A stretch of 32,000 nt of DNA from Candidatus Kuenenia stuttgartensis (GCF_900232105.1 NZ_LT934425.1:90001-122000), one strand, 5' to 3'; positions 3,204 to 19,914 are shown, counted from the stretch's first letter. Numbers and translations are program-made. The notes: generated by a model from the sequence alone, not told the origin.

Positions 3204-3701
3204 TTACTCAAAATGGGAAAGAACTGACGTTGTAAGCAACCACTTTGGTGGTTTTTTGCCATAGGCACACACGGGATAACTACTCCACGGATAATCTGCC
3301 AACCGCCTGACTATTTTGGCTCGTAAAGGATTCCTGTGTATATAGCGGGAAAGACACATCTGGTATTCATCCTTTTCAACAAGAAAGGTTTTGAATCGTC
3401 CCTGGAAAAGGTGCCAAATTCGCTTGTGTTTTAAATTATACCGGTGCGTGTACGTAGTTCCAAACCATTGCATACATTGAAAAATATTGGGTTTATTGGT
3501 TTTGAGGAGTAAATGATAATGGTTATCCATGAGAACATAGGCATATACTTCAACCTCAAACCGTTCCTATATGTTTCCCAAAATATCGAGAAACGAAATA
3601 CGATCGTCATTGTCATGGAAAATATTCCTTCGCTCATTTCCCCGTGATAAGATGTGATAGTAAGTCCCCTTCAAATTCTATGCGCCATGGCCTTGTCATG
3701 G
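3204..3701 (-). pseudogene. REP-associated tyrosine transposase (RAYT, IS200/IS605 Y1-type) pseudogene
   Basis: Three frames are needed. They read MTRPWRIEFEGDLLSHLITGK*, then GNERRNIFHDNDDRISFLDILGNI*ERFEVEVYAYVL, then MDNHYHLLLKT...FQGRFK...YIHRNPLRA...YPWSSY. The HUH-type (HYHLLL) and YIHxNP motifs are typical of RAYT/IS200-like Y1 transposases. It has at least one frameshift and one internal TAG. Confidence 0.7.
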
Positions 3702-4632: not shown

Positions 4633-4908
4633 TTAAATTACGTATATATTTTCAATCTTTGAGACCTTTCCCTTTCCCATTACTTCTATCCTTTTTTCAC
4701 ACCCGGCACAAATAGAATAAATACGGATACTGTCGTCTTCTGCGATTATAATCTCCTGTATTCTTTTTATCATTTTGCCTAAAAGCTTCTCATCCAAAAT
4801 ACATTCAAATACACTATACTGCACCCGGTCGCCAAAGTCTTCCAGGATTTTTGCGAGCTTTGTCCTTCTTCTTGTTTCCGGAATATCATAGGAAACCAAA
4901 TAAAACAT
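4633..4908 (-). CDS. cas2: CRISPR-associated endoribonuclease Cas2
   Basis: 91 aa. MFYLVSYDI...RRRTKLAKILEDFGDRVQYSVFEC is the canonical Cas2 N-terminus. It starts 3 nt downstream of the cas1 stop. Confidence 0.9.
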   Translation of the reverse strand: MFYLVSYDIPETRRRTKLAKILEDFGDRVQYSVFECILDEKLLGKMIKRIQEIIIAEDDSIRIYSICAGCEKRIEVMGKGKVSKIENIYVI

Positions 4909-4911
4909 TGG

Positions 4912-5913
4912 TTATATCTCCATTACAAATGAAGTATAAGGAATATTATTTTGTATATGAGACGCTAAATTCTCCGCTTGTATGCGAAAACATTTTCTGA
5001 AGGTGGTGTTTTCTTTTTGTTGCGGATGAAGAAATTCCCTGTTTATCATTGTTTCATATTCCACAAAATACCGTTTCAATGGCTCTCGTTTCAAATACAC
5101 CCCTCCCGTACTCGGATTAGCATAGAAATCTTCCTCGCAAAATATCCGGTTATTGATAAGATTCAGGGTGATACGATCTGCAATGGGGGCACGAAACTCC
5201 TCCATCAAGTCAGACGCAAGGGAAGATCTGCCATAATCAATTCCATGATAATATCCAAGATAAGGATCAAAGCCCAGCCCGTCAAGGAGCGAGGATATTT
5301 CATTAAAAATCATCGTATAATTTAATGAAAGCAATGCATTCACGGGATCAGTTGACGGGTACTTTTTCCGTCCTGGAAAAGCAAATGCAGAAAGGATCAT
5401 TTTCCCAAAAGACGTAAAATATACCCTGGCGGCATTTCCCTCTATACCAAAAAGCTGGCTGATGTTCGCCGCTGATTCCACTTCATTTAATCGCAGGGAA
5501 AGGTCGTCCATTTCTACATCAAAGCTATTGCGGGGGTGATTATACGAAAACGACCGTACCAGTTGTATACAATTTTGTATCTTCCCGCAAACAATTACTT
5601 TTGCAAAAGCCAGCCGAAAGTCGTCATTCCAATATTGTTTAAACTGTTGAACACGAAGGGTAATATTTTTGGTGTAAGGGGAGGTTATCTGTCCAATGAG
5701 TTTCCCTGTTCTCGTGAGAATAGCCATTTCTATTCCATGCTCAAAGAGTTCGTGTACCGCTTGTGTGGTAAACTGTACATTTCCAAATATGAGAACGGCG
5801 TCTATTTTATGGCATTGCACTTCAAGAAGCACTTTGTCATCCTTTTCAATAATTAACCGGTCACCGCTTTTCCGTAAAATGGAATTCTGTTCAGTCAGGT
5901 AGAGGTTTGCCAT
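4912..5913 (-). CDS. cas1: CRISPR-associated endonuclease Cas1
   Basis: 333 aa. Cas1-like N-terminus (LYLTEQNSILRKSGDRLII), central GLGFDPYLGYYHG...SLASDLMEEFR, and the position next to cas2. Confidence 0.9.
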   Translation of the reverse strand: MANLYLTEQNSILRKSGDRLIIEKDDKVLLEVQCHKIDAVLIFGNVQFTTQAVHELFEHGIEMAILTRTGKLIGQITSPYTKNITLRVQQFKQYWNDDFRLAFAKVIVCGKIQNCIQLVRSFSYNHPRNSFDVEMDDLSLRLNEVESAANISQLFGIEGNAARVYFTSFGKMILSAFAFPGRKKYPSTDPVNALLSLNYTMIFNEISSLLDGLGFDPYLGYYHGIDYGRSSLASDLMEEFRAPIADRITLNLINNRIFCEEDFYANPSTGGVYLKREPLKRYFVEYETMINREFLHPQQKENTTFRKCFRIQAENLASHIQNNIPYTSFVMEI

Positions 5914-6839
5914 ATTTTCCCTTGCTTTCTTTGCTTAAAATAAACTTCAAGGTCTAATGGTTTTGGAAAGAACAACACCTTCCGTTCCTTCTTTGGCCGG
6001 TCGAAAGGCACCATGATCATACTCTTTACAAAAATAACTCCCAGGAATTTAAAACCCTGGTCAAAGTTAATCACCTGTTCTTCATCCAGTTCTAAAAGAA
6101 GTTTTTCCAATATTTTCTTTGTTAATTTGAGTGATTCTTTTGCCATTCCGGAATTTTTGCAAAGGATGATGAAATCATCTGAAAATCGCACAAGCTTATA
6201 TCCGTTACGAGTAAGTTCTTCATCGAATTCATCAAGATACAGATTTGCAAGAATCGGGGAGATGGGTGAACCTTGCGGAATCCCTTTTTTTAATGTGGTT
6301 ACCGTTTTTCCATCCCATACTTCACCTTTTAGCCAGAGCCCTACCAGGTTTTGAATACATGGATCGTGAATATAACATTTGAATTTTAACAGGAGCAATG
6401 AATAATCCACACTATCGAAAAACGCATCGATATCTGCATCCACAACCCACTGATAACCCTGTTCATAATACTCCCTGACTTTATAAACCGCCTGTTTTAC
6501 GGAACGGCCTTTCCGGTAGGCAAAGCTGCACTCTTCAAATTCTTTCTCAAGAACAGGTTCAATGAGTTGCAATACGGCTGCCTGTACTATCCGGTCTCTC
6601 ACTGAAGGGATGCACAATGCCCTGGCCTCTCCGTTTCCCTTATCAACCAGGATTCTTAAAAGAGGGAGAGGAAAGTACGTTTGTTCCGTAAGCTCCTTGC
6701 GCATAATTCTTAGATTCAGATCAAGGTTTCCCTCATAACGTTCGATAGTAACACCATCCGCGCCTGCACAACCGTGATTTTCCTTAACGGCATCAAAGGC
6801 GGAATATAACGCTGAGAGATTTAATGCAAATTCCTTCAT
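5895..6839 (-). CDS. Stand-alone group-II-intron-like reverse transcriptase associated with cas1
   Basis: RT motifs present: IPSVRDRIVQ, DADIDAFFDSV, GIPQGSPISPILANLYL, RFSDDFIIL (the YxDD position reads FSDD) and FLGVIF. ATG at 6839 is preferred; the ORF track uses TTG at 6845. The 3-prime end overlaps cas1 by 19 nt. Confidence 0.85.
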   Translation of the reverse strand: MKEFALNLSALYSAFDAVKENHGCAGADGVTIERYEGNLDLNLRIMRKELTEQTYFPLPLLRILVDKGNGEARALCIPSVRDRIVQAAVLQLIEPVLEKEFEECSFAYRKGRSVKQAVYKVREYYEQGYQWVVDADIDAFFDSVDYSLLLLKFKCYIHDPCIQNLVGLWLKGEVWDGKTVTTLKKGIPQGSPISPILANLYLDEFDEELTRNGYKLVRFSDDFIILCKNSGMAKESLKLTKKILEKLLLELDEEQVINFDQGFKFLGVIFVKSMIMVPFDRPKKERKVLFFPKPLDLEVYFKQRKQGKIWQTST

Positions 6840-6841
6840 AC

Positions 6842-7081
6842 TCAAAATGGGTCATGGTCAAATATGACAACATCACCGGTAACAGGTGATCGATATATCA
6901 ATTTCTTCGCTTTTCCGTGCAAAGCATGTGCAACCGCCAGGTAAAGCCAGACAGGGGCACTACCGGTCAAAATAACTTCGTCTCCTTCGCCGGCGAGATT
7001 CATACATTTGCCTAAATATTCATCTAAATTTGAAAGTTTAGCAACATTATCAAAAACCGTTGAGAGATCAATAATAATCAC
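6842..7081 (-). CDS. csx3: Csx3-like protein (Crn3-type cA4 ring nuclease family)
   Basis: 79 aa. VILTGSAPVWLYLAVAHALHGKAKKLIYRSPVTGDVVIFDH matches my recollection of the Csx3 core (V.SGRGPIWLH..LAH.....V..YDPRLG.VVV.SH). The GTG start overlaps the upstream stop (GTGA). Confidence 0.65.
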   Translation of the reverse strand: MIIIDLSTVFDNVAKLSNLDEYLGKCMNLAGEGDEVILTGSAPVWLYLAVAHALHGKAKKLIYRSPVTGDVVIFDHDPF

Positions 7082-7974
7082 GAATCCAGCTCCCCACTAT
7101 CAGCAGAAGAAAGGAGAACATCATAACTCACCACATGCCATGGTAAATTTGTTTGAACATATTGCAATTTGATTTTCAAATTAAAGGTCATTGAAGCGCC
7201 TATAACACTTGTTGGTTTTTGACCTCCCGTAATATCGATCATAATTTCTTCTTCTTTATATTTATTTTTCTTAAATTCACTGAGCAAAAACCATAGTGCG
7301 TGTGAGAGCCTGTCAAATTCTTCAAAATCAAAACCTTGATAACCATTTATTGTTACATCAGGAGAAAGTTGCAATAGTTTGTTTGTGTCCCCTTTTCGTG
7401 CTAATAGATAAAAACGAATCTGTCTAAAAGAATTATATTTTTCGCAAAGATGAAGAAACATATATACTTGATTGATAGATTCCGGTGAACAAATAAGAGT
7501 AACGGTTTCCAGAATACCCATATGATGCCGTATTGCCCTGAGCGGCATTTCCCATTTCCACAAAATTGGGTGTTGTGGTTCTTGTTTTAATAGTTCAATG
7601 GTTTCTATATCTTTATCTATTTCATAAATAAGGTGTAAACCCTTCGGAATTCCGTTTGTTTCCTCAAGTTTCTTCGGAAGATTTGAAAGGAAAAGAACAA
7701 GGTGTTTCCTTTTTTCAGGATTTTCATCATATGAAAAATATCGGGTACGAGGCCTGAAGAAAACATTTCTCTTTCTATACAATAGATAGGCCATAGAGAA
7801 AAAGAAAACAACAGAGACAATTTTTAACAATCGATGCAACATTATATTTTCTTTCGTCAGATATTCAAAAAAATCCCAAAAAACTTCGGTCGCCCATCCC
7901 GCGCTTAATAATACACATAGAGTAATAATAAACGGCGATAATTCTTTTATTCTTGTTTGTATCTTTCCTCTCAT
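7078..7974 (-). CDS. Membrane-anchored (2 TM) CARF-domain protein, Cam1-like architecture
   Basis: 298 aa. Hydrophobic helices at about aa 13-31 and 48-66. Beta1-like HLVLFLSNL at aa 91-99 and the CARF hallmark DITGGQKPTSVIGASMT at aa 247-263. It sits in a type III locus. Confidence 0.55.
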   Translation of the reverse strand: MRGKIQTRIKELSPFIITLCVLLSAGWATEVFWDFFEYLTKENIMLHRLLKIVSVVFFFSMAYLLYRKRNVFFRPRTRYFSYDENPEKRKHLVLFLSNLPKKLEETNGIPKGLHLIYEIDKDIETIELLKQEPQHPILWKWEMPLRAIRHHMGILETVTLICSPESINQVYMFLHLCEKYNSFRQIRFYLLARKGDTNKLLQLSPDVTINGYQGFDFEEFDRLSHALWFLLSEFKKNKYKEEEIMIDITGGQKPTSVIGASMTFNLKIKLQYVQTNLPWHVVSYDVLLSSADSGELDS

Positions 7975-8084
7975 TAGATTCGATTATCTCCATTATTTGA
8001 ATAAATACGGAAGGTAATGTTTCGTGCTCCTTCTGTTAAACCCTTGGCGGTGTTAGCGCTTATTGAACCAACCGATCTTAAGAG

Positions 8085-8228
8085 TTAATCAATTAAATTA
8101 TATGCACCTCTACCACGGGGAAATTTCTCAACATCAATCAGTGCCAATAAATATAAATTGTGTGCCTCCTGCCATACTTTCAATTCGGTAAAATGATGCA
8201 GTATGTTTTTATGCGTATTTTTGTTCAT
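8085..8228 (-). pseudogene. N-terminal fragment of a four-helix-bundle (23S rRNA IVS / S23-type) protein gene
   Basis: A 47-aa ORF, MNKNTHKNILHHFTELKVWQEAHNLYLLALIDVEKFPRGRGAYNLID*, has the family N-terminal pattern (L.VWQ.A..L......FP) but stops about 70 aa short of normal length. Confidence 0.5.
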
Positions 8229-8380
8229 CTGTCATCTGGCCACTCGCCTCTGGTAACTGTGTTCTGTCCCTACGACAACAGGCCAAACAAATGCAATGTT
8301 CAATTGTGAATGAAGAATTATCAATTCGTATCTTTCTGTATCCTTCGATTCATCATTGTTCATTCTCCATTCCTAATTAA

Positions 8381-8540
8381 TTTCTAGCCCCTTATTCATC
8401 AGGTCAATGTTTCCTAGGGTACCCTTTTTAACATCAATAAAGACAGCCACTTATAAGGCCAATTCCTGTTATCATCCCCTTTTTTTACGATAAAAAAAAT
8501 TCGTTAACCTATTATAAAATAAGGTTTTATATATAATTTT
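8381..8540 (-). other. Vestigial CRISPR module: one degenerate repeat plus a leader-like sequence
   Basis: 8381-8416 ttctagccccttattcatcaggtcaatgtttcctag resembles the 37-bp repeat (core tcatcaggtcaatg). The following acttataaggccaattcctgttatcatcccctttttt...aaaaaattcgttaacct resembles leader segments acttgcaaggccatttcctgtaacc...ccccctttt...aaaaaattgtcttaacct. Confidence 0.5.
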
Positions 8541-8645
8541 AGCCAATTTCTCACAAAAACGGCTCTACCACAGTATTTCTTGCCACGGAGAATACAGAGG
8601 GACAAGGAATAAATTCTCTTGTAGAAAACAAAATTCTTCTCCACA

Positions 8646-10031
8646 TTAAAGTAACGACTCAATTAATTTATTTACTCTGATAAACGGATTCTCAATTGCT
8701 TTTATATCCAGATTCTCTATAACAAGAACAAGTTGCTCTAAGGAAAATCCTGGAATTATTTTTTCTATTTTTTCTTTGGAAACGCCTTCAAAACCGTGTC
8801 CCAAGGGGCTTTTATTTCTTAGTGTATTGAGACGTTGAAGTTCTCTTAAAGTATTAAATATATTTGAGAAAGAGGTGTTCCCCTCGTTTTTTTGTGTAAT
8901 AAAATTCAAAATAGCCATCAAGGTTGGAACAGAAGGCTTGTTGTAGAGCAGTTTATTGTTTTCAGAAGGGTACTGCTCTAAATAAGGTATCAAACCCTCG
9001 ATATTTTGAATACCCCTTGAGTAATTTTCATAGGTATTCTTGTTTTTATCTGTGTCGGTAACTATTTCAAGATTTGTTTCAACAATGTAACGCAACACCG
9101 CTTCCTGAAAACGAAATAATCTTCCAAGGAAATCAAGATATTCCCCCTTTTTCCATTTAATCTCCGCATTAAAATAGAGTTCCAATATTAAAGATTTAAG
9201 ATCATGATCCAAAAGTTCCTGAAATTCCGATGTAAATACAATTAAAAGGTTTCTAATTTTGCCAGACACCTTTGCAATGAGTTTTCCCGATTGGCTCCTT
9301 GCCAAGTCGAAGTTGAAATTAAGTCGGTGACGAGTTATTTCCGCAACTGAAGCAATATCTTCCTGGTTCAAATCCCTTAAAAGAGAAGACGCCACGCTAT
9401 ATTCAAAATTTTCTATTTGTTTCAATACAAGAGCAATTTTGGAATTTTTAATAAGTTGTTTTCCTATTTGCAAGGGAACAACAATACCGCTACCTTCTAA
9501 GGAATAGACAGGTACACACTTTTGCTGAAAAATACTGATTGAGTGGAAGCACAACGCCATATTGCAGGCAGGTATTCCACCTGCAAGAGAAACGTAAATT
9601 TCATCAAAATGATCATCGAACATACTTTTTTTACCACTGAGAAATTTACCGAAATATTCGAACATTGAGTCATAAAGGTTAGGATTTGCATCTATTTCTT
9701 TGATAGCAACTTTCGTTATTGGTTTTTTACCACGATATAATTGTTGAATGCATTTTGCAAAGTAGAGAGTATCGTTACTTCGATAATGTTCTGCAGCATC
9801 CTCTTGATTGGTAGAAAAAAGCAATAATTCAATGTCGGAGTCTGGATTATTATCTTTGAGGTAGTTTATTATGGGGGATAAAATAGGTGTTGAGAGTTTT
9901 TCAGAGACACTTTTGAAGTTCTCGTTCATCCTTTCACCTTCTATCCTTGCAGGCTTTATTGCCTCACCCTCTAATTGAAGGTCGCGACTGCCTATATTGG
10001 CAATAAGAAGTATTTTTATTTTGTTATGCAT
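8646..10031 (-). CDS. csm6: Csm6-like CARF-HEPN ribonuclease
   Basis: 461 aa. Rossmann-like N-terminus (KILLIANIGSRDL, LLLFSTNQ, SLAGGIPACNMAL). C-terminal LRNKSPLGHGF fits the Csm6 HEPN R-N-x5-H-G-F motif. It follows csm5 in III-A order. Confidence 0.6.
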   Translation of the reverse strand: MHNKIKILLIANIGSRDLQLEGEAIKPARIEGERMNENFKSVSEKLSTPILSPIINYLKDNNPDSDIELLLFSTNQEDAAEHYRSNDTLYFAKCIQQLYRGKKPITKVAIKEIDANPNLYDSMFEYFGKFLSGKKSMFDDHFDEIYVSLAGGIPACNMALCFHSISIFQQKCVPVYSLEGSGIVVPLQIGKQLIKNSKIALVLKQIENFEYSVASSLLRDLNQEDIASVAEITRHRLNFNFDLARSQSGKLIAKVSGKIRNLLIVFTSEFQELLDHDLKSLILELYFNAEIKWKKGEYLDFLGRLFRFQEAVLRYIVETNLEIVTDTDKNKNTYENYSRGIQNIEGLIPYLEQYPSENNKLLYNKPSVPTLMAILNFITQKNEGNTSFSNIFNTLRELQRLNTLRNKSPLGHGFEGVSKEKIEKIIPGFSLEQLVLVIENLDIKAIENPFIRVNKLIESLL

Positions 10032-10038
10032 GATTATT

Positions 10039-10434
10039 TCAGGTTCTAAAGTTTAATATTTTGTTATCAATTTCACATTCGAAATCATAAAAATCAATCG
10101 CTAACGCATTACAATCGGGGCATTTCGCTAAAGTAATTGCAATTTCTGCAAATTCCTTTTTTAACCTTTTCAATCCTGATTTTGTTCGAATTCCATTAAC
10201 ACGTTTGTGGATTTCTATACATTCATCAGCTTCTGGTTCACATTTCTCACAACCTCTGACCCTATGAATGTTCGCTAAAAGAAAACAGCTAATTTCATAT
10301 TTAATGTCATCAATGTTTGTTACCGTATTAGCATCAATGTCTTTTTTGTTTTTTCTAGCAATAACGAATTCATATATAACAACTAAAGCAGCTACACCTC
10401 CTAGTATTGTGGGAATTATTATTATCCAGTCCAT
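10039..10434 (-). CDS. Small membrane-anchored Cys-rich protein of unknown function
   Basis: 131 aa. N-terminal TM helix (WIIIIPTILGGVAALVVIYEFVI) followed by RKNKK. The soluble part has C62-x2-C65 and C105-x2-C108 plus C50, C72, C120, H57 and H76. It lies 22 nt after csm5 and 7 nt before csm6 on the same strand. Confidence 0.6.
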   Translation of the reverse strand: MDWIIIIPTILGGVAALVVIYEFVIARKNKKDIDANTVTNIDDIKYEISCFLLANIHRVRGCEKCEPEADECIEIHKRVNGIRTKSGLKRLKKEFAEIAITLAKCPDCNALAIDFYDFECEIDNKILNFRT

Positions 10435-10456
10435 AATTTATTTAAAGAATATTTCT

Positions 10457-11626
10457 TCAAATATTATTTTCTACTACACACCAGCCTAATATAGCATAGC
10501 TTGAATGGTTACTTGTTATTATCCTTCTTGACTTAGGCGCAGGTGAATCTCCCCGATCTGTGAAGAGTATATTTCTTAAGTCTTGTTTCGTCTCTGCTGG
10601 CAGAAGCATTGCTACGGACGTCCCTAAAAGTCCCATGCCCCAACCCAGTCTAAAATTTGGAGTTTCATTTCCAAAATTTAAAATATTCTTCAGTTTCAAT
10701 TTTTGCGAAAAGAACGATTCTTCCTCTCTTAATAAATCGGAGGTCATTTCATTCACTGCTTCAAAGGGATTAGATAAAATTTTCTTTAGTTCTGAGAAGG
10801 CTACACCGAAGGAATTTGATGGGTTATTTTCTTTAAATTTATTTAGCAACCATTCGTCAATTTTACATTGAAAGGTAAATTCATTACCAGCAGGTATGCA
10901 TTCAACAAAAACAGACCAGTCTTTTGGGCTTTTAGCAGAGTCAGCACTGAATATTTTTACTTCTTCAAGATGTAAATTGCCGGTATCAATAGAGTTTGAA
11001 TCGGAAATCTGTATGCACCTTAAGATATCAGAATGCGGATCATATCGTTTCTGGTTATTTTTGATAACAAATTTTTGAAAGATTTCTTCGTCGAGTCTTT
11101 GTGCAAACCATTGTTTAAACCTTTCTTTAAACCAGGAATAGCCCTGCTCTCCTCTGGGATCTTTTTTATATTCCAAAAGTTTTTTTTGTACAAAATCAGT
11201 TAATATCTTTTTACGTAAAGTATCATTAAGTCTTTTTAAGATGACATACATTATTGACGTCCTTATCACCCCTTTTATGGCAGAACCGGGAAGATAAGGC
11301 TGTGAAAATGCATTTCTAATGCAGGATCTTATATTACCTTGGATATTGATGTTGCAATGACTGGAATAACTGGATGTTTTATCCAGGAATTCCTGTGTCA
11401 GGAGTTTTTTTTCTTTAAGGAAGGCATCAACGCTAAAATCTTTGCCTTTTTGTTTGATTCCGGTTAAGAAGTTATCAAGAAGTTGTCTATCGTACAGTTC
11501 TTTTGAGAGCTTATCTTCGTTAATGAAATAACATTTATTTCTAAAAATGAGATATTCCATCGGTAAAAAATTTCCCTCTTTTCCTCCAATGTGAATGGAA
11601 GAAAGGGTTTTAAGCTTCAATTTCAT
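10457..11626 (-). CDS. csm5: Type III-A RAMP protein Csm5
   Basis: 389 aa. LKTLSSIHIGG..., YLPGSAIKGVIRT, a C-terminal G-rich loop RLGWGMGLLGTSV, and the position after csm4. Confidence 0.75.
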   Translation of the reverse strand: MKLKLKTLSSIHIGGKEGNFLPMEYLIFRNKCYFINEDKLSKELYDRQLLDNFLTGIKQKGKDFSVDAFLKEKKLLTQEFLDKTSSYSSHCNINIQGNIRSCIRNAFSQPYLPGSAIKGVIRTSIMYVILKRLNDTLRKKILTDFVQKKLLEYKKDPRGEQGYSWFKERFKQWFAQRLDEEIFQKFVIKNNQKRYDPHSDILRCIQISDSNSIDTGNLHLEEVKIFSADSAKSPKDWSVFVECIPAGNEFTFQCKIDEWLLNKFKENNPSNSFGVAFSELKKILSNPFEAVNEMTSDLLREEESFFSQKLKLKNILNFGNETPNFRLGWGMGLLGTSVAMLLPAETKQDLRNILFTDRGDSPAPKSRRIITSNHSSYAILGWCVVENNI

Positions 11627-11636
11627 AATTGATATC

Positions 11637-12611
11637 CTATGCTAAAATTGGCACGGTAAAGGCAAGTCCATTTCTATAAACGGGATGAAAATCTTTTTTT
11701 TCTAATATTTCCGGTGTAACGGAAACAAGATTCCCTTGTATGGTTTGTTTGAACACTGAACCTTCAGAGAACATGCTTACTGTTTTTCGTTTGTATTGAG
11801 CTTTACTGAATGGAGTAGACATCCACCCTCTTCGCTCAATCAATCCATATGAAGCGCCTTCAATAAGACTCTCTAAAACCCCTTCAATATTCATGTGGTA
11901 AAGCGATAATGTGCAATGCGCATTGCCTTTAAAGGCAAGAAGATTTTTCCATTTTTCATTTATGTCTTCCCAACATAATTTGTATCTTCCCAATCCAATG
12001 TTTCTTTTTCCACCGAGCCCAGATTCCCCAAGGTATTCAAGGGACGACTTTATCTTCTCTTCAATGGATAAATCATTTATTTTGACGATGCAATATAAAC
12101 CGCAATCTTTATTGAATCTCACTGTTTTCATGCGGAATATTTGTGCATTTAAGGTTGAGCGATCAATGGTAGCTCGTGGAATCAAATCAAATTGGTAACA
12201 TGAGTCGTAGTCCGGCAATACTACTTTTTTGAGATAATTCTCAATTTTTTCTCTTTTTGCCCACTGTTCAAAAAGTTCAAAAGGTAAAAAAGATATATTC
12301 TTAACCTTTTTGCCAAATTCTTCGCGAATCTCAGCGTTTTCAAACCCAGGGGGAAGTGTATGTGGTTTGGGTAAAAAAAATGTTTCGTTGCTATAAAGAA
12401 AACAGGAGGTAATCAGAAAAGGAGCGGCATCTTTGAATTTGGCAAGCATGGATTCCATATCCGTTTTTCCATAGACTATTCCCCAAGCATGACATATGGC
12501 GCTAAATATGGTGTCGGAGTGAACCATTTCACTTGATTCTTCAACGCCGATTCCGGCTTCACCAAAATAAGCAGAAGTATAAAATTGAAATTTTGCAATT
12601 TTAGTAGACAT
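11637..12611 (-). CDS. csm4: Type III-A RAMP protein Csm4
   Basis: 324 aa. N-terminus FQFYTSAYFGE...VHSDTIFSAICHAW, G-rich LGESGLGGKRNIGLGRY, and the position between csm3 and csm5. Confidence 0.8.
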   Translation of the reverse strand: MSTKIAKFQFYTSAYFGEAGIGVEESSEMVHSDTIFSAICHAWGIVYGKTDMESMLAKFKDAAPFLITSCFLYSNETFFLPKPHTLPPGFENAEIREEFGKKVKNISFLPFELFEQWAKREKIENYLKKVVLPDYDSCYQFDLIPRATIDRSTLNAQIFRMKTVRFNKDCGLYCIVKINDLSIEEKIKSSLEYLGESGLGGKRNIGLGRYKLCWEDINEKWKNLLAFKGNAHCTLSLYHMNIEGVLESLIEGASYGLIERRGWMSTPFSKAQYKRKTVSMFSEGSVFKQTIQGNLVSVTPEILEKKDFHPVYRNGLAFTVPILA

Positions 12612-12620
12612 ACCAACCCC

Positions 12621-13418
12621 TTACAAAATATCAAACATAGATAATATTTCGTCAACATTCTGCTTGCATTCATCAATGGTTTTATTTTCCAAGATTGAAC
12701 TATTGCTTTTTTTGTCTTCTTCGGAGGTTGCCCTGTAGAATTCCAATTTTCTTGCCATGAATTTATCTATTGTAAAACCGACTTTGCCGTAACCTCTTGA
12801 ACCATGTCCTCCCAGATAATCGTCTTGCAATAAACTTATTAACTCTAAAAGGTTGGATAAATCTTTTTTTGCCTCGCCATTACTAGCCTCCACGTTATAT
12901 ACGATTTCAAACTCGAATTTGGCGCCAGCGGGAATACGCTCTAATTGTCGAGGATTTGCGGCGGCAGTAACTCTATCAAGTGAGTTTTCAAATTTCCATT
13001 CCGTGTATTGCAAGCCGGTATCAATTTTTTTTAATTTTTCTCTACTCTCTTCCTCCAATAAACAATCTCTGACAGAAAGCCTGGAAGGAAGATTTTCATC
13101 TGCATTACTTCCGGTAGATCCGAAAAGTCTACAGACGTAGCACTGAGAGTCTGTGCATTCATGCCTCCAAACGTCTCCCCCACCTGATCTATTAAACTGC
13201 TTATTCTCCATTCGCTCAAAAAGTGATCTTAACTTTCCTTTCAATGAACTTCCGGGTATGTACGGTTCTCTTGTAAGAGGATCTCTCATTACCGGTGCGT
13301 CGATACCACCAATATCCATTTTTTCTTTTGAGCCGCCAATATGAAGTCCAGTTTCACATTTTATCTTTCCCAGAATAAATATTTTTCCTAGTAATGGTTT
13401 TTCTTGAAGCCTTGGCAT
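12621..13418 (-). CDS. csm3: Type III-A backbone RAMP Csm3 (Cas7 family)
   Basis: 265 aa. GKIKCETGLHIGGSKEKMDIGGIDAPVMRDPLTREPYIPGSSLKGKLRS is canonical Csm3, including the DxP(V/I)xRD region. It also has C-terminal GGHGSRGYGKV. Confidence 0.9.
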   Translation of the reverse strand: MPRLQEKPLLGKIFILGKIKCETGLHIGGSKEKMDIGGIDAPVMRDPLTREPYIPGSSLKGKLRSLFERMENKQFNRSGGGDVWRHECTDSQCYVCRLFGSTGSNADENLPSRLSVRDCLLEEESREKLKKIDTGLQYTEWKFENSLDRVTAAANPRQLERIPAGAKFEFEIVYNVEASNGEAKKDLSNLLELISLLQDDYLGGHGSRGYGKVGFTIDKFMARKLEFYRATSEEDKKSNSSILENKTIDECKQNVDEILSMFDIL

Positions 13419-13436
13419 TATATTTTCTCCTTTTAT

Positions 13437-13871
13437 TTATGATTCCCGACCGCCATGATACCGATGATATGCAACAATCGACTCAACGAACTTGTGAAAT
13501 CTTTCAAAATCCTTTTCAACCTTAACTTTGTCCATACAGGGATCAAGAACTTCCATAAGGGGGACAACCTCTCTAGACCTGCCTGCCGCATATGCAAGTT
13601 TGGGCTTTAACAGAATTACTTTTTCCTTATAATGCAACTTAGGATTTGCTATCCCCTCGGCCCGTATGGTATTTACCATGTCGAGAAATTTACGAATTTG
13701 ATTTGTTTTGAGACGCACTTTGTTTGCGAGAAAGTCACCAACGTCTTCTGCGTATTTCACAAGATGCGATGCCGGCAAACTTCCCATATCTGGAAGAGCC
13801 TTCAATTCTTTCACTATGCCGTTTATTACAGAAGGTGGACCGCTTGGCACATTTTTTTTAAAATTTGACAT
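13437..13871 (-). CDS. csm2: Type III-A small subunit Csm2 (Cas11)
   Basis: 144 aa, helical. TNQIRKFLDMVNTIR and LLKPKLAYAAGR are Csm2 signatures. It sits between cas10 and csm3. Confidence 0.8.
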   Translation of the reverse strand: MSNFKKNVPSGPPSVINGIVKELKALPDMGSLPASHLVKYAEDVGDFLANKVRLKTNQIRKFLDMVNTIRAEGIANPKLHYKEKVILLKPKLAYAAGRSREVVPLMEVLDPCMDKVKVEKDFERFHKFVESIVAYHRYHGGRES

Positions 13872-13892
13872 TTGCCTATTTCCCTCTCATTA

Positions 13893-14360
13893 TTAATGAA
13901 GATTTTCTGCTCTACTGAGCAACTCTATCCATATTAAAGGAATTCTTAAATTAATAATATCATTCGGATTCATTAAAAAACTTTCAAATTTGTTTCTGTC
14001 AGTCTCATTTATTTTTTCGCTTAACTCCTTTCTTACTCTCGCAATTACATACGCCATTCTCGGCAGATATATGACACCTTCCCTTTCCCACAATTCAAAG
14101 AGGGAAAAGAGTTTGTAAATTAATCCATGCGCATATTCGGATTTAAAACGATTTTCATTTTGATCTATTTTGCCCATGGTTTTAAATAAATTTATGAACT
14201 TCAATACATCATCCGTAGTTTTGTCCCACGAAAAAACCTGCTTGATTGTATTCCTTGTTCCAAACCTTTTATTTTTTAACGCTGGATTATAAAATAATGC
14301 CAGGCTGTTCCGTCCTGAATCTTTTGCAAGATTTTCAGCGTCTCCTGCAAGATCTGCTAG
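13893..14360 (-). pseudogene. cas10: cas10/csm1 C-terminal fragment, separated by IS insertion
   Basis: Encodes ADLAGDAENLAKDSGRNSLALF... (the Cas10 AK..GKN region plus the D4 helical domain). The first 18 codons of track ORF 13893..14414 are IS-derived. Joined to 16365-18441 at a single CTAG it gives one 2541-nt in-frame ORF. Confidence 0.8.
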
Positions 14361-16364
14361 CGTGAGTTTATCACGAAATAAGGTGTAAGACAAAGACATC
14401 AAGTTGCAATCCAATGATTTGTATCGGGTTGCGACTTTTTTTGTCTAAAAAATTATGTATACACTGAATAATACTATATTTATATTGCATTATATGCCTG
14501 TATATACTATTATACACGGAGTATTAATCTATTACGTATACACTAACAACTAATAGCCATGGCTACCATTCAATCTAAAAACTCCAGAGGTTATAAATAT
14601 TGGTATATTGTCGAATCGCGGCGCGTTAACGGCAAGCCCAGGCCCATCGTCCTGGCCTATCTTGGCAAGGCAGACGATTTATTAAAACAACTGCAAGGTC
14701 TTACCGAAAAATTACGGCTCAAATCTTATTCACATGGCGCGGTAGCCGCATTGCTAAGTGTGGCCAATGCCCTGGACGTCCCTTCCGTGATTAATAAATA
14801 TATAAAGTCGCCACGGCAGTATTGTGCTAAAAAACCTGTTCGAAATAATCTGACCGCCGGAAGTACCCTCTTGTTGGGTGCCGTGGGGAGAGTGTGTGTG
14901 CCTACCAGCAAAAGAGGATGGTGGGATTGGGCAAAGACGACTACTGCCGAATACTTACTCAGACACAGCTTGAGTAAAATAGACAGTCAGCATTTCTGGG
15001 ATTTGATGGATGCACTTCCTGAAGAATCCATTGCAGAAATCGAGCGCGAATTAATTGAAAAGACATTTAAAACATACAACCTTCAAAGCGACACACTGTT
15101 TTTTGATACAACCAATTTTTTCACGTATATCGACACAACTAATCTGCGATGCACTATTGCCCGGCGGGGGAAAAACAAACAAAAGCGATACGATCTCAGG
15201 CAGGTCGGGTTGGCGATGGTCGTTACACGTAACGACATGATACCGTTGTTTCACCATACCTATCAGGGGAACATGGCGGATGCAAAGGTGTTCAGCGCGG
15301 TTCTTGAGACGATAAAAGACAGGATGACCGGATTAGGTTTCGACAGCAAAAAGCACACTATTGTTTTTGATCGTGGAAACAATTCCATGGACAATATGGC
15401 TATTGTAGAGAGATTGGCATTGCATTACGTTGGAGCGCTTACACCGTATCATCACAAGCAGTTGGTAGGGGATGCCATGTGTAATTTCAGGGAATATGAC
15501 GTTGACGGCAGTAAGATACAGGTGTACCATGACAAACGGGTTATTTGGGGGCAGGAAAGAACCGTTGTCGTATTTATTTCCGAGAAATTAAAGGTTGGGC
15601 AATTAAGGGGAATGTCTCAGTCTCTGGAAAAGGCAGAACATCAGTTAAAGCTCTTACAGCAGCATCTGTGTAATCCAAAGGGAAAGATGCGGGACAAAGA
15701 GGGTCTGGAGGATACGATAAGAAGTGTAGTGAAATGTCAATTTGCGAAGGATGTTATCGATTGGTCGTTAAAAGAGGTATCTGAAGGCAAGTTTCAATTG
15801 AATTTTTCAATCGACCAGAAAAAGCTCGAAGAAATAGAAGGGGAACTGGGGTTCAGGATTCTTATGACAGACCATCACGATTGGGATACCGCGGACATTA
15901 TAAAAGCCTACTATGGGCAATCAAAAATTGAACATGCCTTTAGAAATCTCAAGAACCCCTATCACCTTGCTTTAAAACCGCAATTTCACTGGACGGATCA
16001 GAAAATCAGGGTGCATTTTTTTATTTGCGTCCTCGGATACCTAATGGCGGCGATTGTGTGGTATCAGGCAAAAGCGCACGCACAATTTAGTGGAACGTTA
16101 GATACCCTGTTAGACACCCTTAATAATATAAGGCTTTCTGCTATGCTTGAAGAAACAAAGGCCAGAGGGAGAGTTAAGGCTACCTACAAATTGGAAGAAA
16201 TGTCCGACAAGGAATCTCTGTTGATGAATGCGTTAGGCATTATGGATTTCCACAAACATCGGCTGAAACTTCAAGGACTCAGTGTATACAATTGATGTTG
16301 TGCTTAACGCATTGACTGTATTTATGTTACGTTGCTTCATGCCTTATTTTGTGATAAACTCACG
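14361..16364 (+). mobile_element. IS4-superfamily (IS1634-like) insertion sequence, 2004 bp, inside cas10
   Basis: Terminal inverted repeats are cgtgagtttatcacGaaataagg (14361-14383) and ccttattTtgtgataaactcacg (16342-16364), matching 22 of 23 with weaker similarity extending to about 33 bp. It is flanked by CTAG at 14357-14360 and 16365-16368, consistent with a 4-bp target duplication. It carries a single transposase ORF. Confidence 0.85.
14559..16295 (+). CDS. DDE transposase, IS4 superfamily / IS1634-like
   Basis: 578 aa. The N-terminus SRGYKYWYIVESRRVNGKPRPIVLAYLGK is typical of IS1634-family transposases. DDE candidates are FFDTTNF, VFDRGNNS and YYGQSKIEHAFRNLK (a Y-x2-R/Q-x3-E-x6-K type motif). 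Confidence 0.85.
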   Translation: MATIQSKNSRGYKYWYIVESRRVNGKPRPIVLAYLGKADDLLKQLQGLTEKLRLKSYSHGAVAALLSVANALDVPSVINKYIKSPRQYCAKKPVRNNLTAGSTLLLGAVGRVCVPTSKRGWWDWAKTTTAEYLLRHSLSKIDSQHFWDLMDALPEESIAEIERELIEKTFKTYNLQSDTLFFDTTNFFTYIDTTNLRCTIARRGKNKQKRYDLRQVGLAMVVTRNDMIPLFHHTYQGNMADAKVFSAVLETIKDRMTGLGFDSKKHTIVFDRGNNSMDNMAIVERLALHYVGALTPYHHKQLVGDAMCNFREYDVDGSKIQVYHDKRVIWGQERTVVVFISEKLKVGQLRGMSQSLEKAEHQLKLLQQHLCNPKGKMRDKEGLEDTIRSVVKCQFAKDVIDWSLKEVSEGKFQLNFSIDQKKLEEIEGELGFRILMTDHHDWDTADIIKAYYGQSKIEHAFRNLKNPYHLALKPQFHWTDQKIRVHFFICVLGYLMAAIVWYQAKAHAQFSGTLDTLLDTLNNIRLSAMLEETKARGRVKATYKLEEMSDKESLLMNALGIMDFHKHRLKLQGLSVYN

Positions 16365-18441
16365 CTAGAAGATGTAAAGGGTAGTTTTCGTCGGCAGTGA
16401 TAATACCTCCTGAAATGCTAAGCCTACCGCAGGTATAACTCTTGAAACTATTATTAATGTCGAAGGCAACTTCAACTACATCATCCCATGAACCAACTAA
16501 AAACAAATCATCACCACCGGAATAGATTATGCTTATATTTCTACCTTTGTTTTCCGTGTGGCTTTTCTCGCTAATATCAAGGGCGCTATATATACTGCTA
16601 TCAAGCTTTCTCTCACAAATACGCCTGATATAATGTTTAAAAAATAAGGTCAATTCTCTTGAGAGTGTGGATAGTTTGGAGAAGGTTCTGTTCTGTTTGT
16701 CTAAACCTTTTAAAAATACTTTCGCCAGATGATCAATATCCATTCTTAATACACCAATCCTTGATGCGCCTCTCGATGCCAAGCTGAGCCCCTGAAAACT
16801 AGCAGTAGATCTTATGGATGCTTTCCCTTCCAATTCCTTACTTTTGGCTTTTTCCGGGAGATCATTTACGATACGTACATAATTACAATAACAGAGTTGA
16901 GAGGTGTTATGGGTTGAGAATTTATTTATGTCGGAATTATTTAGAAGATAAGTCCTGTCTGCATCATTTGTCCGATTCTCAAAAGAATAGGATATAAAAT
17001 GCCCTTTAATTTTAGGCAAACATATCGTGTCTTCAATTTTTTCATCTACATTCTTTCCTTGTATCTCCGTGCAATCAATTAGGGTATCTCCCAAAGAGTA
17101 TAATTTTTTGCAAAAGTCGCAAGATTTTATTTTTTTCTGAAAAATAATTAGATCAGTTAAAGTAACATCATCTCTGTAGCAAATAGAACATTTTTCTAAA
17201 GGGTCTTTTGTCTCTATAGGACTGAGTATCTCCGACAAATTGTTGCTGAATTTGTTTGATTTTACTTTTGATAACTCATTGCCCAAGTTAGACCATACTT
17301 CGCATATTTTATCCGTAGATAAATCATCTCCTGAGACCGGAACGGAGGTCATCGCGAGAAATAGCGTGTGTCGAAAATTGGCCAATAACCAGTTGTTAAT
17401 TTTTTGTGCAAAATGATTTATTTCTAATTCAATACCATCCTTGTTATGAGAAAGGATATAAAATTTGCCTCCGCCATTGTAAATAATGTTTGCTCTGGTT
17501 AAATTGAAGTACTCTATTATTTCAGAAACCACGTGTTCCGTAAATAGCTCAAGAAAAAAAGACCGTGCTCTTAGAGTTTTTAAGGCACCTTTTGAAGATA
17601 TTGTATAGATAAAGGTTTGAACCCCGGAGATATCACCCCCAATGAGTCTGAAATAATTTTTATTTCTGTCTAATATTTCATCCTTAAATATATTTGCATT
17701 AAACATTTCTTTTTTTAATTCAATAAAATAATTATAAAGGCAGGAAGCTATGGCGGATGTTACCTTGGCATGGTCAAAAAAAGAAACGTCTGAGTATAAA
17801 GCCACATTATTTTTTGTTTTTACTGTTTCCGAAGGTACGGAAGACCAATATTTTTCTAATAATACGATAAGTGCTGAAATCGATAAACCTTTTTGAATCC
17901 AAATTGTAAAATCATTCTCAAATTGCTTGAGAAGGTTGTCGTAATCGTACGCTTCTATTTTTATATGCTCCCTCTCTTCTGGATAGCGTATTTCTCTTGA
18001 AAGCGGTTTTAATTTATGAAAATAACATTTTTCTTCAGATATATTTTCTTTCAAATGGATTTTTGAAAATATTGACATTAAGGGCTCATGCTTTAGGTTG
18101 ATTGATTCAACTATTTCTTCGTCTTTTAGTGACGTTGCTAAATTATTTGCCTGGTAGCAAATCAAGGTTAAATTGTTATTTTCTATTTCTCTAATGTATT
18201 TTTTATTATGGAGCTTTGTGTACGTTGATATTGTCGATGGCAAACCATTCATTACATGCTTATCTAGCCATTCCATACCCATGGAACAAGAGTCTCTTCC
18301 ATTATTATCTTGATTTGCACGAATTACTATCTTTCCTATATCATGTAATAATGAGCCAAGGATTATAGATTTATATTCCCTCGTCTGTTCTTCATTCATA
18401 TGATTCTCCATAATTTCGTTTCTCTTATTCAAAATTAGCAA
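16365..18441 (-). pseudogene. cas10: cas10/csm1 N-terminal fragment (HD + Palm/cyclase), truncated by the IS
   Basis: HD motif SLLHDIGK, first Palm GGDISGVQTFIY, Cys cluster CSICYRD..CDFC, and cyclase motif YSGGDDLFLVGSWDD. It ends ...ENYPLHLLA* with the stop supplied by the IS end. Confidence 0.85.
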
Positions 18442-18659
18442 TCCGTTATTGAAATATGTAATACTTCTTCATACATAAAGTGCCTTGTTGCTCCAATTAA
18501 TTCAATATGATTAGATAATTATATTGAATCAATCATCAATAGTTAAAAAACTCATATCAACCTTCAAAAGAAAACGCATACCATAAACACCGAATGGATA
18601 CAACATCCCTTCTATCAGGCCGAACCAGCAGAGCTGGAGTGAAAGTCAAAAGTAAAAAG

Positions 18660-19073
18660 TCATTCTTTCTCCCATGTACTAATCATCTTACTCAACATAG
18701 CCCGTATCTCCTGGCATGTTTGTTCCCGTTTCACAAATACCATTGAATCTATGAACCCAGATCTTTTTAGTTTTTCATACCAATCAATTGTTCCATTTGC
18801 AGACCCTCTTGAAATATATAAATAATGTACAAACTCTTACTCTTACTCTTACTCTTACTCTTACTCTTACTCTTACTCTTACTCTTACTCTTACTCTTTC
18901 CTTCTTCCATATCTCTCTGTAATATTAGCGGTAATTGAAAAAACACTTCGTATTATTTGATTTGCTATTATCTTGCCAACCTCTGTTTTTGGGAATTTTT
19001 CTATGTCCCTTATCACTTCATCAAATAAATTCATGCCCGTTTGCCATACTTTCAGTTCCCCGAAATCTTTCAT
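18660..19073 (-). pseudogene. Four-helix-bundle (23S rRNA IVS / S23-type) protein gene interrupted by a stop-containing microsatellite
   Basis: The N-terminal part is MKDFGELKVWQTG...ANITERYGRRKE (track ORF 18891..19073). The C-terminal part, FVHYLYISRGSANGTIDWYEKL...STWEKE*, is read from 18833 down to 18660. Without the 60-bp repeat the gene would encode a contiguous 117-aa family-typical protein. Confidence 0.7.
18834..18898. repeat. Hexanucleotide microsatellite (CTCTTA) of about 10.8 copies
   Basis: Ten perfect tandem CTCTTA units span 18834-18893, followed by a partial ctctt. On the coding (minus) strand it reads (TAAGAG)n. Confidence 0.95.
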
Positions 19074-19129
19074 GCTTTTTCGTTATTTCCTTTAAACTTG
19101 CAACATTCATCTTTCAACTCCGCCATTGG

Positions 19130-19914
19130 TGGCTTATCCCTTCTACATCAGGTCAATAATTCCCACGCACAAACAGAAACTAACCCTGATAATTTGCTTT
19201 TTAGTTCTGTCTCAATCCCTTCTACATCAGGTCAATGATTTCCACAAGAAATTTTATCTGCTTTTGACGCAGACTTTGTTTCTGTTTGTCTCAATCCCTT
19301 CTACATCAGGTCAATGATTTCCACGATGGTGTGCTATATGTTGTGTGGAATGTGTTTTTGCTGTCTCAATCCCTTCTACATCAGGTCAATGATTTCCACC
19401 CAATGCAATAACGGGGGAGACGTCTTTACCTTTGTCTCAATCCCTTCTACATCAGGTCAATGATTTCCACCAAAAAGAAGATTTTCCTGATGCAAAAGTA
19501 TGTATCGTCTCAATCCCTTCTACATCAGGTCAATGATTTCCACGTCAATAGCACTGGCGATGACTTTCCGTTCTCCAAGTCTCAATCCCTTCTACATCAG
19601 GTCAATGATTTCCACGTTCCTAATCCGGCGCCACACATGCCTTTTTCATACCACGTCTCAATCCCTTCTACATCAGGTCAATGATTTCCACCGGGAAAGC
19701 GACCATACCTACTGGTACGGCGATGAGCGTCTCAATCCCTTCTACATCAGGTCAATGATTTCCACCTGAAATTGATGACAGTGGGTTCTCCAATCCGTTT
19801 TCGTCTCAATCCCTTCTACATCAGGTCAATGATTTCCACCCAGATTCATATGAAGCGCCAGAATGTCTTGATGATAAGTCTCAATCCCTTCTACATCAGG
19901 TCAATGATTTCCAC
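19130..19914 (-). CRISPR. CRISPR array 2: 10 perfect plus 1 degenerate 37-bp repeat, 10 spacers of 34-42 bp
   Basis: Same repeat as array 1. Repeats start at 19209, 19288, 19363, 19434, 19507, 19579, 19655, 19729, 19803 and 19878. The degenerate terminal copy at 19130-19166 (tggcttatcccttctacatcaggtcaataattcccac) is at the leader-distal end, which supports minus-strand transcription. Confidence 0.97.

Follow-up and report, generated by a model that had tools for sequence, protein, structure and literature searches.

Does the CRISPR-Cas locus of type III-A in Candidatus Kuenenia stuttgartensis encode a membrane effector of cyclic oligoadenylate (cOA) signalling next to its csx3 ring nuclease gene, and if so, is this effector a form of the known protein Cam1? 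The question arises in a 32,000-nucleotide (nt) stretch of the genome (GCF_900232105.1, NZ_LT934425.1:90001-122000), referred to here as the window, whose first letter is position 1 of all coordinates given without another source. The gene at issue, here termed TM-CARF, had been proposed in the original prediction, made from the sequence alone, to specify a cOA-gated membrane protein with two transmembrane (TM) helices and a CARF domain, paired with its own ring nuclease and possibly forming a family separate from Cam1. From the analyses described below, this prediction is right in its essentials, and we consider it likely that TM-CARF is a membrane-embedded pore gated by cOA, most probably cyclic tetra-adenylate (cA4), and switched off by Csx3. 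The gene and its predicted parts, with lengths and positions of the product in amino acids (aa), are as follows.

7078-7974, minus strand: TM-CARF gene, 298 aa, two-helix membrane hairpin and cytoplasmic CARF domain
7876-7938, minus strand: TM1, aa 13-33, from hydropathy and a 44-sequence family profile of hydrophobicity and charge
7777-7833, minus strand: TM2, aa 48-66, from the same two sources
7741-7761, minus strand: juxtamembrane motif FFxPRTR, aa 72-78, from alignment A1 and the family charge profile
7111-7713, minus strand: CARF domain, approximately aa 88-288, from alignments A1 and A2, the AlphaFold2 model, Foldseek and profile searches
7216-7236, minus strand: CARF motif II, DITGGQK, aa 247-253, from the translation, alignments A1 and A2 and profile matches

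Sensor domain and membrane hairpin of the TM-CARF protein

The TM-CARF open reading frame (ORF) starts with ATG, and its TGA stop (7080-7078) shares bases with the GTG start of csx3 (7081-7079), as had been noticed earlier; further overlaps on the 3' side amount to 4 nt between csx3 and the reverse transcriptase (RT) gene and 19 nt between the latter and cas1. A protein search yielded 180 homologs of approximately 300 aa with conserved length, and the homolog clusters, counted as representatives at 50% identity, number 1515 at E<=1e-3, of which 210 reach E<=1e-30. The closest match, 99% identical, is annotated as a hypothetical protein in Ca. Kuenenia stuttgartiensis. Because of these homologs and clusters, and because the motif residues are invariant in family alignments, TM-CARF is a real gene and not a chance ORF. 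Conservation was followed in two alignments, one of the close family (A1, 44 sequences) and one of the broad family (A2, 28 sequences).

The CARF domain comprises about 210 aa. Its beginning, HLVLFLSNL (aa 91-99), contains strand beta1 (HLVLFLS), whereas beta4 carries D-I-T-G-G-Q-K at the head of the segment DITGGQKPTSVIGASMT (aa 247-263), and beta5 reads QYVQT. The translation bears out the segments at aa 91-99 and aa 247-263 and the distance of 155 aa that separates beta1 from the TGG motif, all of which had been described before, and the codons of nt 7216-7236, read by hand, are GATATTACGGGAGGTCAAAAA, i.e., DITGGQK. Both CARF ligand motifs, a Ser/Thr after beta1 and D-x-T-G-G-x-K after beta4, are present. 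In the close family, residues S97, D247, T249, G251, K253, Y272 and T275 are invariant, and G250 and Q252 occur in at least 90% of the sequences; in the broad family, S97, D247, T249, G250, G251, Q252 and K253 are invariant. The domain is enlarged in two places: about 45 residues are inserted between beta1 and the hallmark helix, WxWEMPLRAIxHH, and residues 187-202 form an additional beta-hairpin. Beyond the domain the protein continues for about 10 residues.

An AlphaFold2 model built from the 44-sequence alignment shows a hairpin followed by an alpha/beta domain, with a mean predicted local distance difference test (pLDDT) score of 85 and values above 90 over most of residues 90-250. When the model was compared with the PDB by Foldseek, nine of the ten best matches were CARF domains (probability 0.97-1.0), consistent with the Rossmann-like alpha/beta fold of CARF domains and its six-stranded sheet. 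The first, with probability 1.0 and a TM-score (normalised to Cam1) of 0.61-0.67, was the CARF domain of Cam1 (8T66), followed by Cami1, Csx1-Crn2, Can2, Cad1 and Crn1. A profile of the broad family, searched against PDB sequences, likewise matched Crn1/Sso2081 (7e-4) and Cam1 (1.4e-3), with the alignment covering the D-x-T-G-G-x-K strand and the next strand, Y-V-x-T; the D-x-T-G-G-x-K motif itself can be aligned to Crn1, Cam1 and Card1. Neither Pfam nor NCBIfam revealed an enzymatic domain or a family assignment, the sole result being a weak match to the CARF model TIGR02710 (9e-4), in agreement with the predicted lack of a nuclease or other enzymatic motif. As judged from its sequence and modelled fold, TM-CARF thus possesses a canonical but enlarged CARF domain, in which both ligand motifs are invariant throughout the family.

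The two N-terminal hydrophobic helices, which formed part of the original prediction, appear in hydropathy, in the family charge pattern and in the model. The Kyte-Doolittle profile (19-residue window) has maxima of 1.72 at aa 15-33 and of 1.78 at aa 44-62, the segment 48-66 scoring 1.67, and a scan past residue 80 showed no comparable hydrophobic peak. Averaged over the 44 family members, TM2 is strongly hydrophobic (1.78) and TM1, which is rich in Ala and Ser, moderately so (about 1.1). Across the family, TM1 conserves P14-W15, S24, N26 (replaced by Gly in Kuenenia) and W27, along with an acidic residue at each of positions 30 and 34, and this helix is a candidate for the pore-facing one. 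In TM2, F58 occurs in 43 of the 44 sequences, and R51 and Y54 are also conserved. On average across the family, 3.1 Lys and Arg residues precede TM1, the acidic loop contains 1.2 and a further 7.9 follow TM2, a pattern that fits an N-in/C-in hairpin with a cytoplasmic CARF domain. The helices of the AlphaFold2 model span residues 2-38 and 45-67, and hydropathy and model together leave a periplasmic loop of only about 10-14 residues. TM2 is joined to the CARF domain by the short, basic and nearly invariant linker FFxPRTR, of which F73, P75, T77 and R78 are each found in at least 90% of the sequences.

Some relatives are longer, at 380-440 aa (L025, L036, L037 and L046; P0178, P0203, P0210 and P0232). 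These bear an N-terminal extension of 80-100 aa with two extra predicted TM helices, and represent four-TM versions of the same CARF.

Relationship to Cam1, Cap1 and the catalogued TM-CARF families

TM-CARF is matched over nearly its entire length (residues 11-286 of 298) by three PADLOC profiles: PDLC01053, 'TM+CARF' (5e-29); PDLC01947, 'CARF8--CARF_TM' (1e-26); and PDLC01168, 'CARF, 2 TMs' (2e-25). The features of these census families are found in the Kuenenia protein as well: N-terminal TM helices are indicated by hydropathy, charge and the model, and the gene lies in a type III CRISPR-Cas locus. The three profiles are also matched by more distant two-TM relatives (246-290 aa). These profiles are approximately 70 residues shorter than the Kuenenia/Desulfobacterota subfamily, owing to the CARF insertions of the latter. 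On the evidence of these profiles, and with the clade assignment taken from PADLOC profile names, TM-CARF is an uncharacterised member of an already catalogued class, the CARF8 TM-CARF clade, to which Cam1 also belongs.

Like Cam1, TM-CARF combines an N-terminal membrane segment with a C-terminal cytoplasmic CARF domain, has no enzymatic domain, resides in type III loci and is usually paired with a ring nuclease; for Cam1, 81% of the loci have one (PMC12409355). Cam1, which upon binding of cA4 depolarises the membrane (PMC10808066), is also the closest solved structure to TM-CARF by Foldseek. The two proteins share the D-x-T-G-G motif and the Y-V-x-T strand, both of which contact cA4 in Cam1. 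The cA4 contacts of Cam1 are S75/N76 after beta1, K160, Y180 and T183 (PMC10808066). In TM-CARF, Y272 and T275 align with Y180 and T183, and Q252/K253 stand at the place of K160, whereas S97/N98 can be matched to S75/N76 by position only.

The differences are nevertheless considerable. Cam1 is about 206 aa long, with a CARF domain of about 140 aa and one TM helix, in which Asp17 is conserved and lines the pore; TM-CARF has two predicted helices, 298 aa, the larger CARF domain, the WxWEMPLRAIxHH helix and the FFxPRTR linker. The acidic residues 30 and 34 of TM-CARF lie at the outer end of TM1, and can be called at most putative equivalents of D17. The reported homologs of NhCam1 number 56, and the tested ones are 42-47% identical (Baca et al. 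2024). For comparison we used a full-length Cam1-family protein (202 aa, one TM helix, in-frame TAG) reconstructed from locus L059. BLASTP between TM-CARF and this protein gave 13 identities over 34 residues, and hhalign of the TM-CARF family profile against it gave 24% probability over 51 columns. The Cam1-type profile PDLC01946, also named 'CARF8--CARF_TM', scored E=0.05 with TM-CARF vs 6e-35 with a Cam1 fragment. Searches of PDB sequences with phmmer and with the A1 profile did not reach Cam1 at E<=10, and the broadened A2 profile did. A protein search with a 59-aa Cam1 fragment returned three short fragments and no full-length Cam1. By sequence homology, TM-CARF does not fall with Cam1.

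Because the similarity is short and the best PADLOC profiles differ, the two are, on sequence grounds, sister subfamilies in one census clade, and do not form a single family. Two helices, a larger CARF domain and a similarity confined to 34-51 residues rule out TM-CARF as Cam1 in the strict sense. The predicted separateness from Cam1 therefore stands at family level, and the family is not a new one, given the catalogue entries.

The Cam1-family gene of L059 (5674-6282) is located in a type III-B (Cmr) locus on a metagenome contig, and is interrupted by an in-frame TAG at codon 95. The split is present in three independent assemblies, and the gene is either a pseudogene or one that is read through.

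For the two-TM architecture the best mechanistic template is Cap1 (CRISPR-associated pore 1) of Parafilimonas terrae, for which a two-TM tetrameric pore gated by cA4 was demonstrated experimentally, with an inner ring formed by TM2 and an outer ring by TM1 (bioRxiv 10.1101/2025.11.13.688252). Its sensor domain, termed 'CARF-like', is streamlined and carries R(X3)QQ(X10)L as its motif, one cA4 being bound per tetramer, and it is often followed by a C-terminal DUF4579, present in a subclade only (same preprint). Cap1 and TM-CARF share an N-in two-TM hairpin that precedes a cytoplasmic cOA sensor, and the type III-A locus of each encodes a Csx3-like ring nuclease. TM-CARF differs in its canonical CARF domain with D-x-T-G-G-x-K and in the helix consensus WxWEMPLRAIRHHLGxLETVTxICS. 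An assignment to Cap1 was rejected: the QQ motif, compared by its description in the preprint, is missing, and Pfam shows no DUF4579. The Cap1 structure was absent among the top 50 Foldseek matches listed from the PDB.

Other membrane effectors were also considered. Chp1 (TM, CARF and HAD), a further precedent (bioRxiv 10.64898/2026.08.05.743128), and Csx23 (TM and a non-CARF cA4 sensor) are both membrane-embedded, cA4-gated type III effectors. TM-CARF is not Chp1, since no HAD match was found in Pfam or NCBIfam, and not Csx23, the sensor of which is not a CARF domain. Cam2 contains a REC domain and Cam3 six TM helices, and both were rejected accordingly. The membrane effectors studied so far are four in number, i.e., Cam1, Cap1, Chp1 and Csx23, according to the August 2026 Chp1 preprint (bioRxiv 10.64898/2026.08.05.743128). 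Our literature search found no experimental work on the TM-CARF subfamily, nor on any other member of the three census families. Its novelty is tempered by the characterisation, in the meantime, of Cap1 as a two-TM CARF-like pore (bioRxiv 10.1101/2025.11.13.688252).

Homologous loci and the locus of Kuenenia

A scan of species-representative genomes provided 58 TM-CARF loci, 28 of which are close to that of Kuenenia; their neighbouring genes were counted by iterative (jackhmmer) searches seeded with the Cas proteins of the window. The expected association with type III cas genes was borne out: Cas10 or Csm/Cmr RAMP genes occur in 36 of the 58 loci and in 23 of the 28 close ones, and three of the five close loci without type III core genes are contigs of <6 kb. 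Some CRISPR marker is present in 47 of the 58. The predicted pairing with a ring nuclease gene also proved to be common, with csx3 directly downstream of TM-CARF in 18 of the 26 close loci that have enough flank. An RT gene accompanies 23 of the 58 loci; of the 28 close ones, about 15 have it directly after csx3. The relatives are distributed among type III-A, III-B and III-D loci in many phyla, and the order cas6, cas10, RAMP genes, TM-CARF, csx3, RT, cas1, cas2 recurs across phyla, such that TM-CARF usually lies directly after the genes of the Cas10 complex and directly before csx3.

No Csm6 homolog was found in any of the homolog loci examined, and 57 unlabelled ORFs within the operons proved to be mostly members of core families (Csx19/Cas11, Cmr3, Csx10 and Cas2), among the 25 most frequent families listed. 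For these two reasons, TM-CARF would normally be the sole recognisable cOA effector of its locus, among the families listed.

In the window, the type III-A locus is encoded entirely on the minus strand, in the order cas6, CRISPR array, cas10, csm2 to csm5, a 131-aa ORF and csm6, and, past a gap of 670 bp, TM-CARF, csx3, RT, cas1, cas2 and a second CRISPR array. The neighbours of TM-CARF are listed below.

6842-7081, minus strand: csx3/crn3 ring nuclease gene, 79 aa, from profile matches; its start overlaps the TM-CARF stop
5895-6845, minus strand: reverse transcriptase gene of the adaptation module, from the ORF and Pfam; 4-nt overlap with csx3
4912-5913, minus strand: cas1, from Pfam
4633-4908, minus strand: cas2, 91 aa, from strain comparison
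8646-10031, minus strand: csm6 (CARF-HEPN), second cOA effector, from Pfam, NCBIfam and PADLOC
10457-13871, minus strand: csm5, csm4, csm3 and csm2 of the type III-A effector complex, from Pfam and NCBIfam
16360-18441, minus strand: N-terminal part of cas10, 693 aa, with HD (residues 32-33) and GGDD (residues 642-645)
14361-16363, plus strand: IS1634-family element in cas10, transposase ORF 14559-16295, missing from strain CSTR1
13893-14414, minus strand: C-terminal fragment of cas10, 173 aa, from NCBIfam

The insertion element (approximately 14361-16363) interrupts cas10 about 50 residues past the GGDD motif. In strain CSTR1 the locus is collinear, the element is absent and Cas10 is intact at 832 aa. 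The blastn blocks at the junction overlap by 5 bp, which may represent a target-site duplication.

A second difference concerns two other Kuenenia genomes (L063 and L064). These carry a different cas10-csm cassette, which cannot be aligned with positions 8057-19800 of the window and lacks both csm6 and the 131-aa ORF. The cassette has the same flanks as in the window, with tsaD/cas6 bordering one end and the genes from TM-CARF to cas2 bordering the other. The breakpoint lies 82 bp upstream of the TM-CARF start, and the block from there to cas2 is 95.6% identical to that of the window. In L063, a 56-aa ORF with a CARF_Card1 Pfam match stands just upstream and looks like the remnant of another effector gene.

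Several smaller features of the locus were also observed. The 79-aa Csx3 matches the PADLOC fusion profile 'CARF_HEPN_CSX3' through its C-terminal Csx3 part (5e-38), far better than the profiles of stand-alone Csx3, which suggests a relationship to the Csx3 domains fused to effectors of the Csm6/Csx1 type. The 131-aa ORF between csm5 and csm6 (10039-10434, minus strand) combines a TM helix at its N-terminus with a C-terminus rich in Cys (CEKCEP..., CPDC). It gave no match in Pfam or NCBIfam and a weak one to Csx28 in PADLOC (E=0.03); it is conserved in strain CSTR1, and none of the 58 TM-CARF loci contains a homolog. The gap between csm6 and TM-CARF (7975-8645) contains one terminator-like hairpin (8461-8444, minus strand) and a 47-aa ORF (8085-8228, minus strand), which we take to resemble the N-terminus of the four-helix-bundle '23S rRNA IVS' protein, and which is probably what remains of a gene at a recombination junction. 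A 60-aa ORF annotated 23S_rRNA_IVP occurs near cas6 in L062. Beside the cas2-proximal CRISPR array there is a fragment of an IS200-like Y1 transposase (3204-3530, minus strand), and at that position one or two Y1_Tnp ORFs are present in related strains.

A proposed cOA-gated pore and its rivals

In the mechanism that we favour on the precedents of Cam1 and Cap1, Cas10 would sense invader RNA and synthesise cOA, which would be bound by the cytoplasmic CARF domains of a TM-CARF oligomer. Since Csx3 (Csx3/Crn3) acts as a ring nuclease specific for cA4 (PMC12409355), cA4 is the most likely ligand. The resulting conformational change would pass through the FFxPRTR linker to the TM hairpins, which would then open an ion-conducting pore, leading to depolarisation and to a halt in the infected cell's growth. 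Csx3, whose translation would be coupled to that of TM-CARF, would degrade cA4 and thereby reset the switch. Several points weigh against this proposal. The two-pass topology is probable and no firmer, as TM1 is moderately hydrophobic in most family members, and the confidence of the model is poor in the very linker that would transmit the signal (pLDDT 55, residues 71-80). The Foldseek E-values are modest (2e-3), although the list is almost purely CARF. The locus in the window also carries Csm6, so that the ligand may be cyclic hexa-adenylate (cA6). Finally, because the IS1634-family element splits cas10, cOA synthesis has probably been lost in this strain and the pathway would be silent in it.

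Other functions can be envisaged for the same domains. TM-CARF could form no pore and act as a membrane-tethered cOA sink or ring nuclease, its CARF domain binding and slowly degrading cOA and thus tuning the signalling. The best sequence-profile match of the broad family in the PDB is indeed Crn1/Sso2081, a stand-alone ring nuclease of the CARF type; the Ser that is invariant after beta1 sits, as we presume, at the position of the catalytic Ser of Crn1; and Pfam and NCBIfam show no effector domain besides the TM helices. We regard this function as unlikely, however. With Csx3 already encoded downstream in so many of the close loci, a second ring nuclease would be redundant, most loci contain no other candidate effector, such that off-switches alone would leave them with no cOA output, and the closest structure is that of Cam1, an effector that is not a nuclease. 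Still less likely is TM-CARF as a ligand-gated anchor, which would recruit or regulate another membrane or periplasmic factor, and so transduce a signal across or along the membrane, while forming no pore itself. The few invariant residues of the TM helices and the presence of the TM/Cys-rich 131-aa ORF in the same Kuenenia operon would agree with such a role, but the periplasmic loop is very short, none of the 58 homolog loci contains a counterpart of the 131-aa ORF, and no conserved membrane partner is seen in these loci, Csx3 being conserved but soluble; we consider it the most improbable of the functions discussed here.

The gene order raises a different possibility, in which TM-CARF acts together with Csx3 as a cOA-responsive partner of the RT-Cas1-Cas2 module, for example by coupling the sensing of infection, or dormancy, to the acquisition of RNA-derived spacers, and not as an abortive-infection effector on its own. 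The frames from TM-CARF through cas2 overlap or nearly abut, the RT gene recurs at the homologous loci, often directly after csx3, and the cas10-csm genes were replaced between Kuenenia genomes next to a well-conserved block from TM-CARF to cas2. Operon compaction and co-inheritance in one type III lineage would explain the gene order too, several loci (L006, L008 and L023-L025) have a Cas1 without RT or no adaptation genes nearby, and we know of no link between CARF proteins and adaptation; such a partnership appears very unlikely. As the interference cassettes were swapped and the block from TM-CARF to cas2 remained intact, the TM-CARF/Csx3 pair stays with the adaptation module. There is only a slim chance that the pair belongs genetically, and perhaps functionally, to the RT-Cas1-Cas2 module and not to the interference cassette. 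If it does, with cOA-triggered depolarisation or dormancy tied to the RT-mediated acquisition of spacers from RNA, type III signalling and adaptation would be connected in a new way.

The proposed cOA-gated pore would overturn no current view. Membrane-acting CARF effectors are an active research topic, and the TM-CARF subfamily, which is large, joins a two-helix hairpin like that of Cap1 to a canonical CARF domain like that of Cam1 and is a reasonable experimental target. Its characterisation would tell whether pores of the two-TM design can also operate with a canonical CARF sensor that is dimeric, and would also reveal how the membrane is gated by an enlarged CARF domain through a very short, rigid linker.

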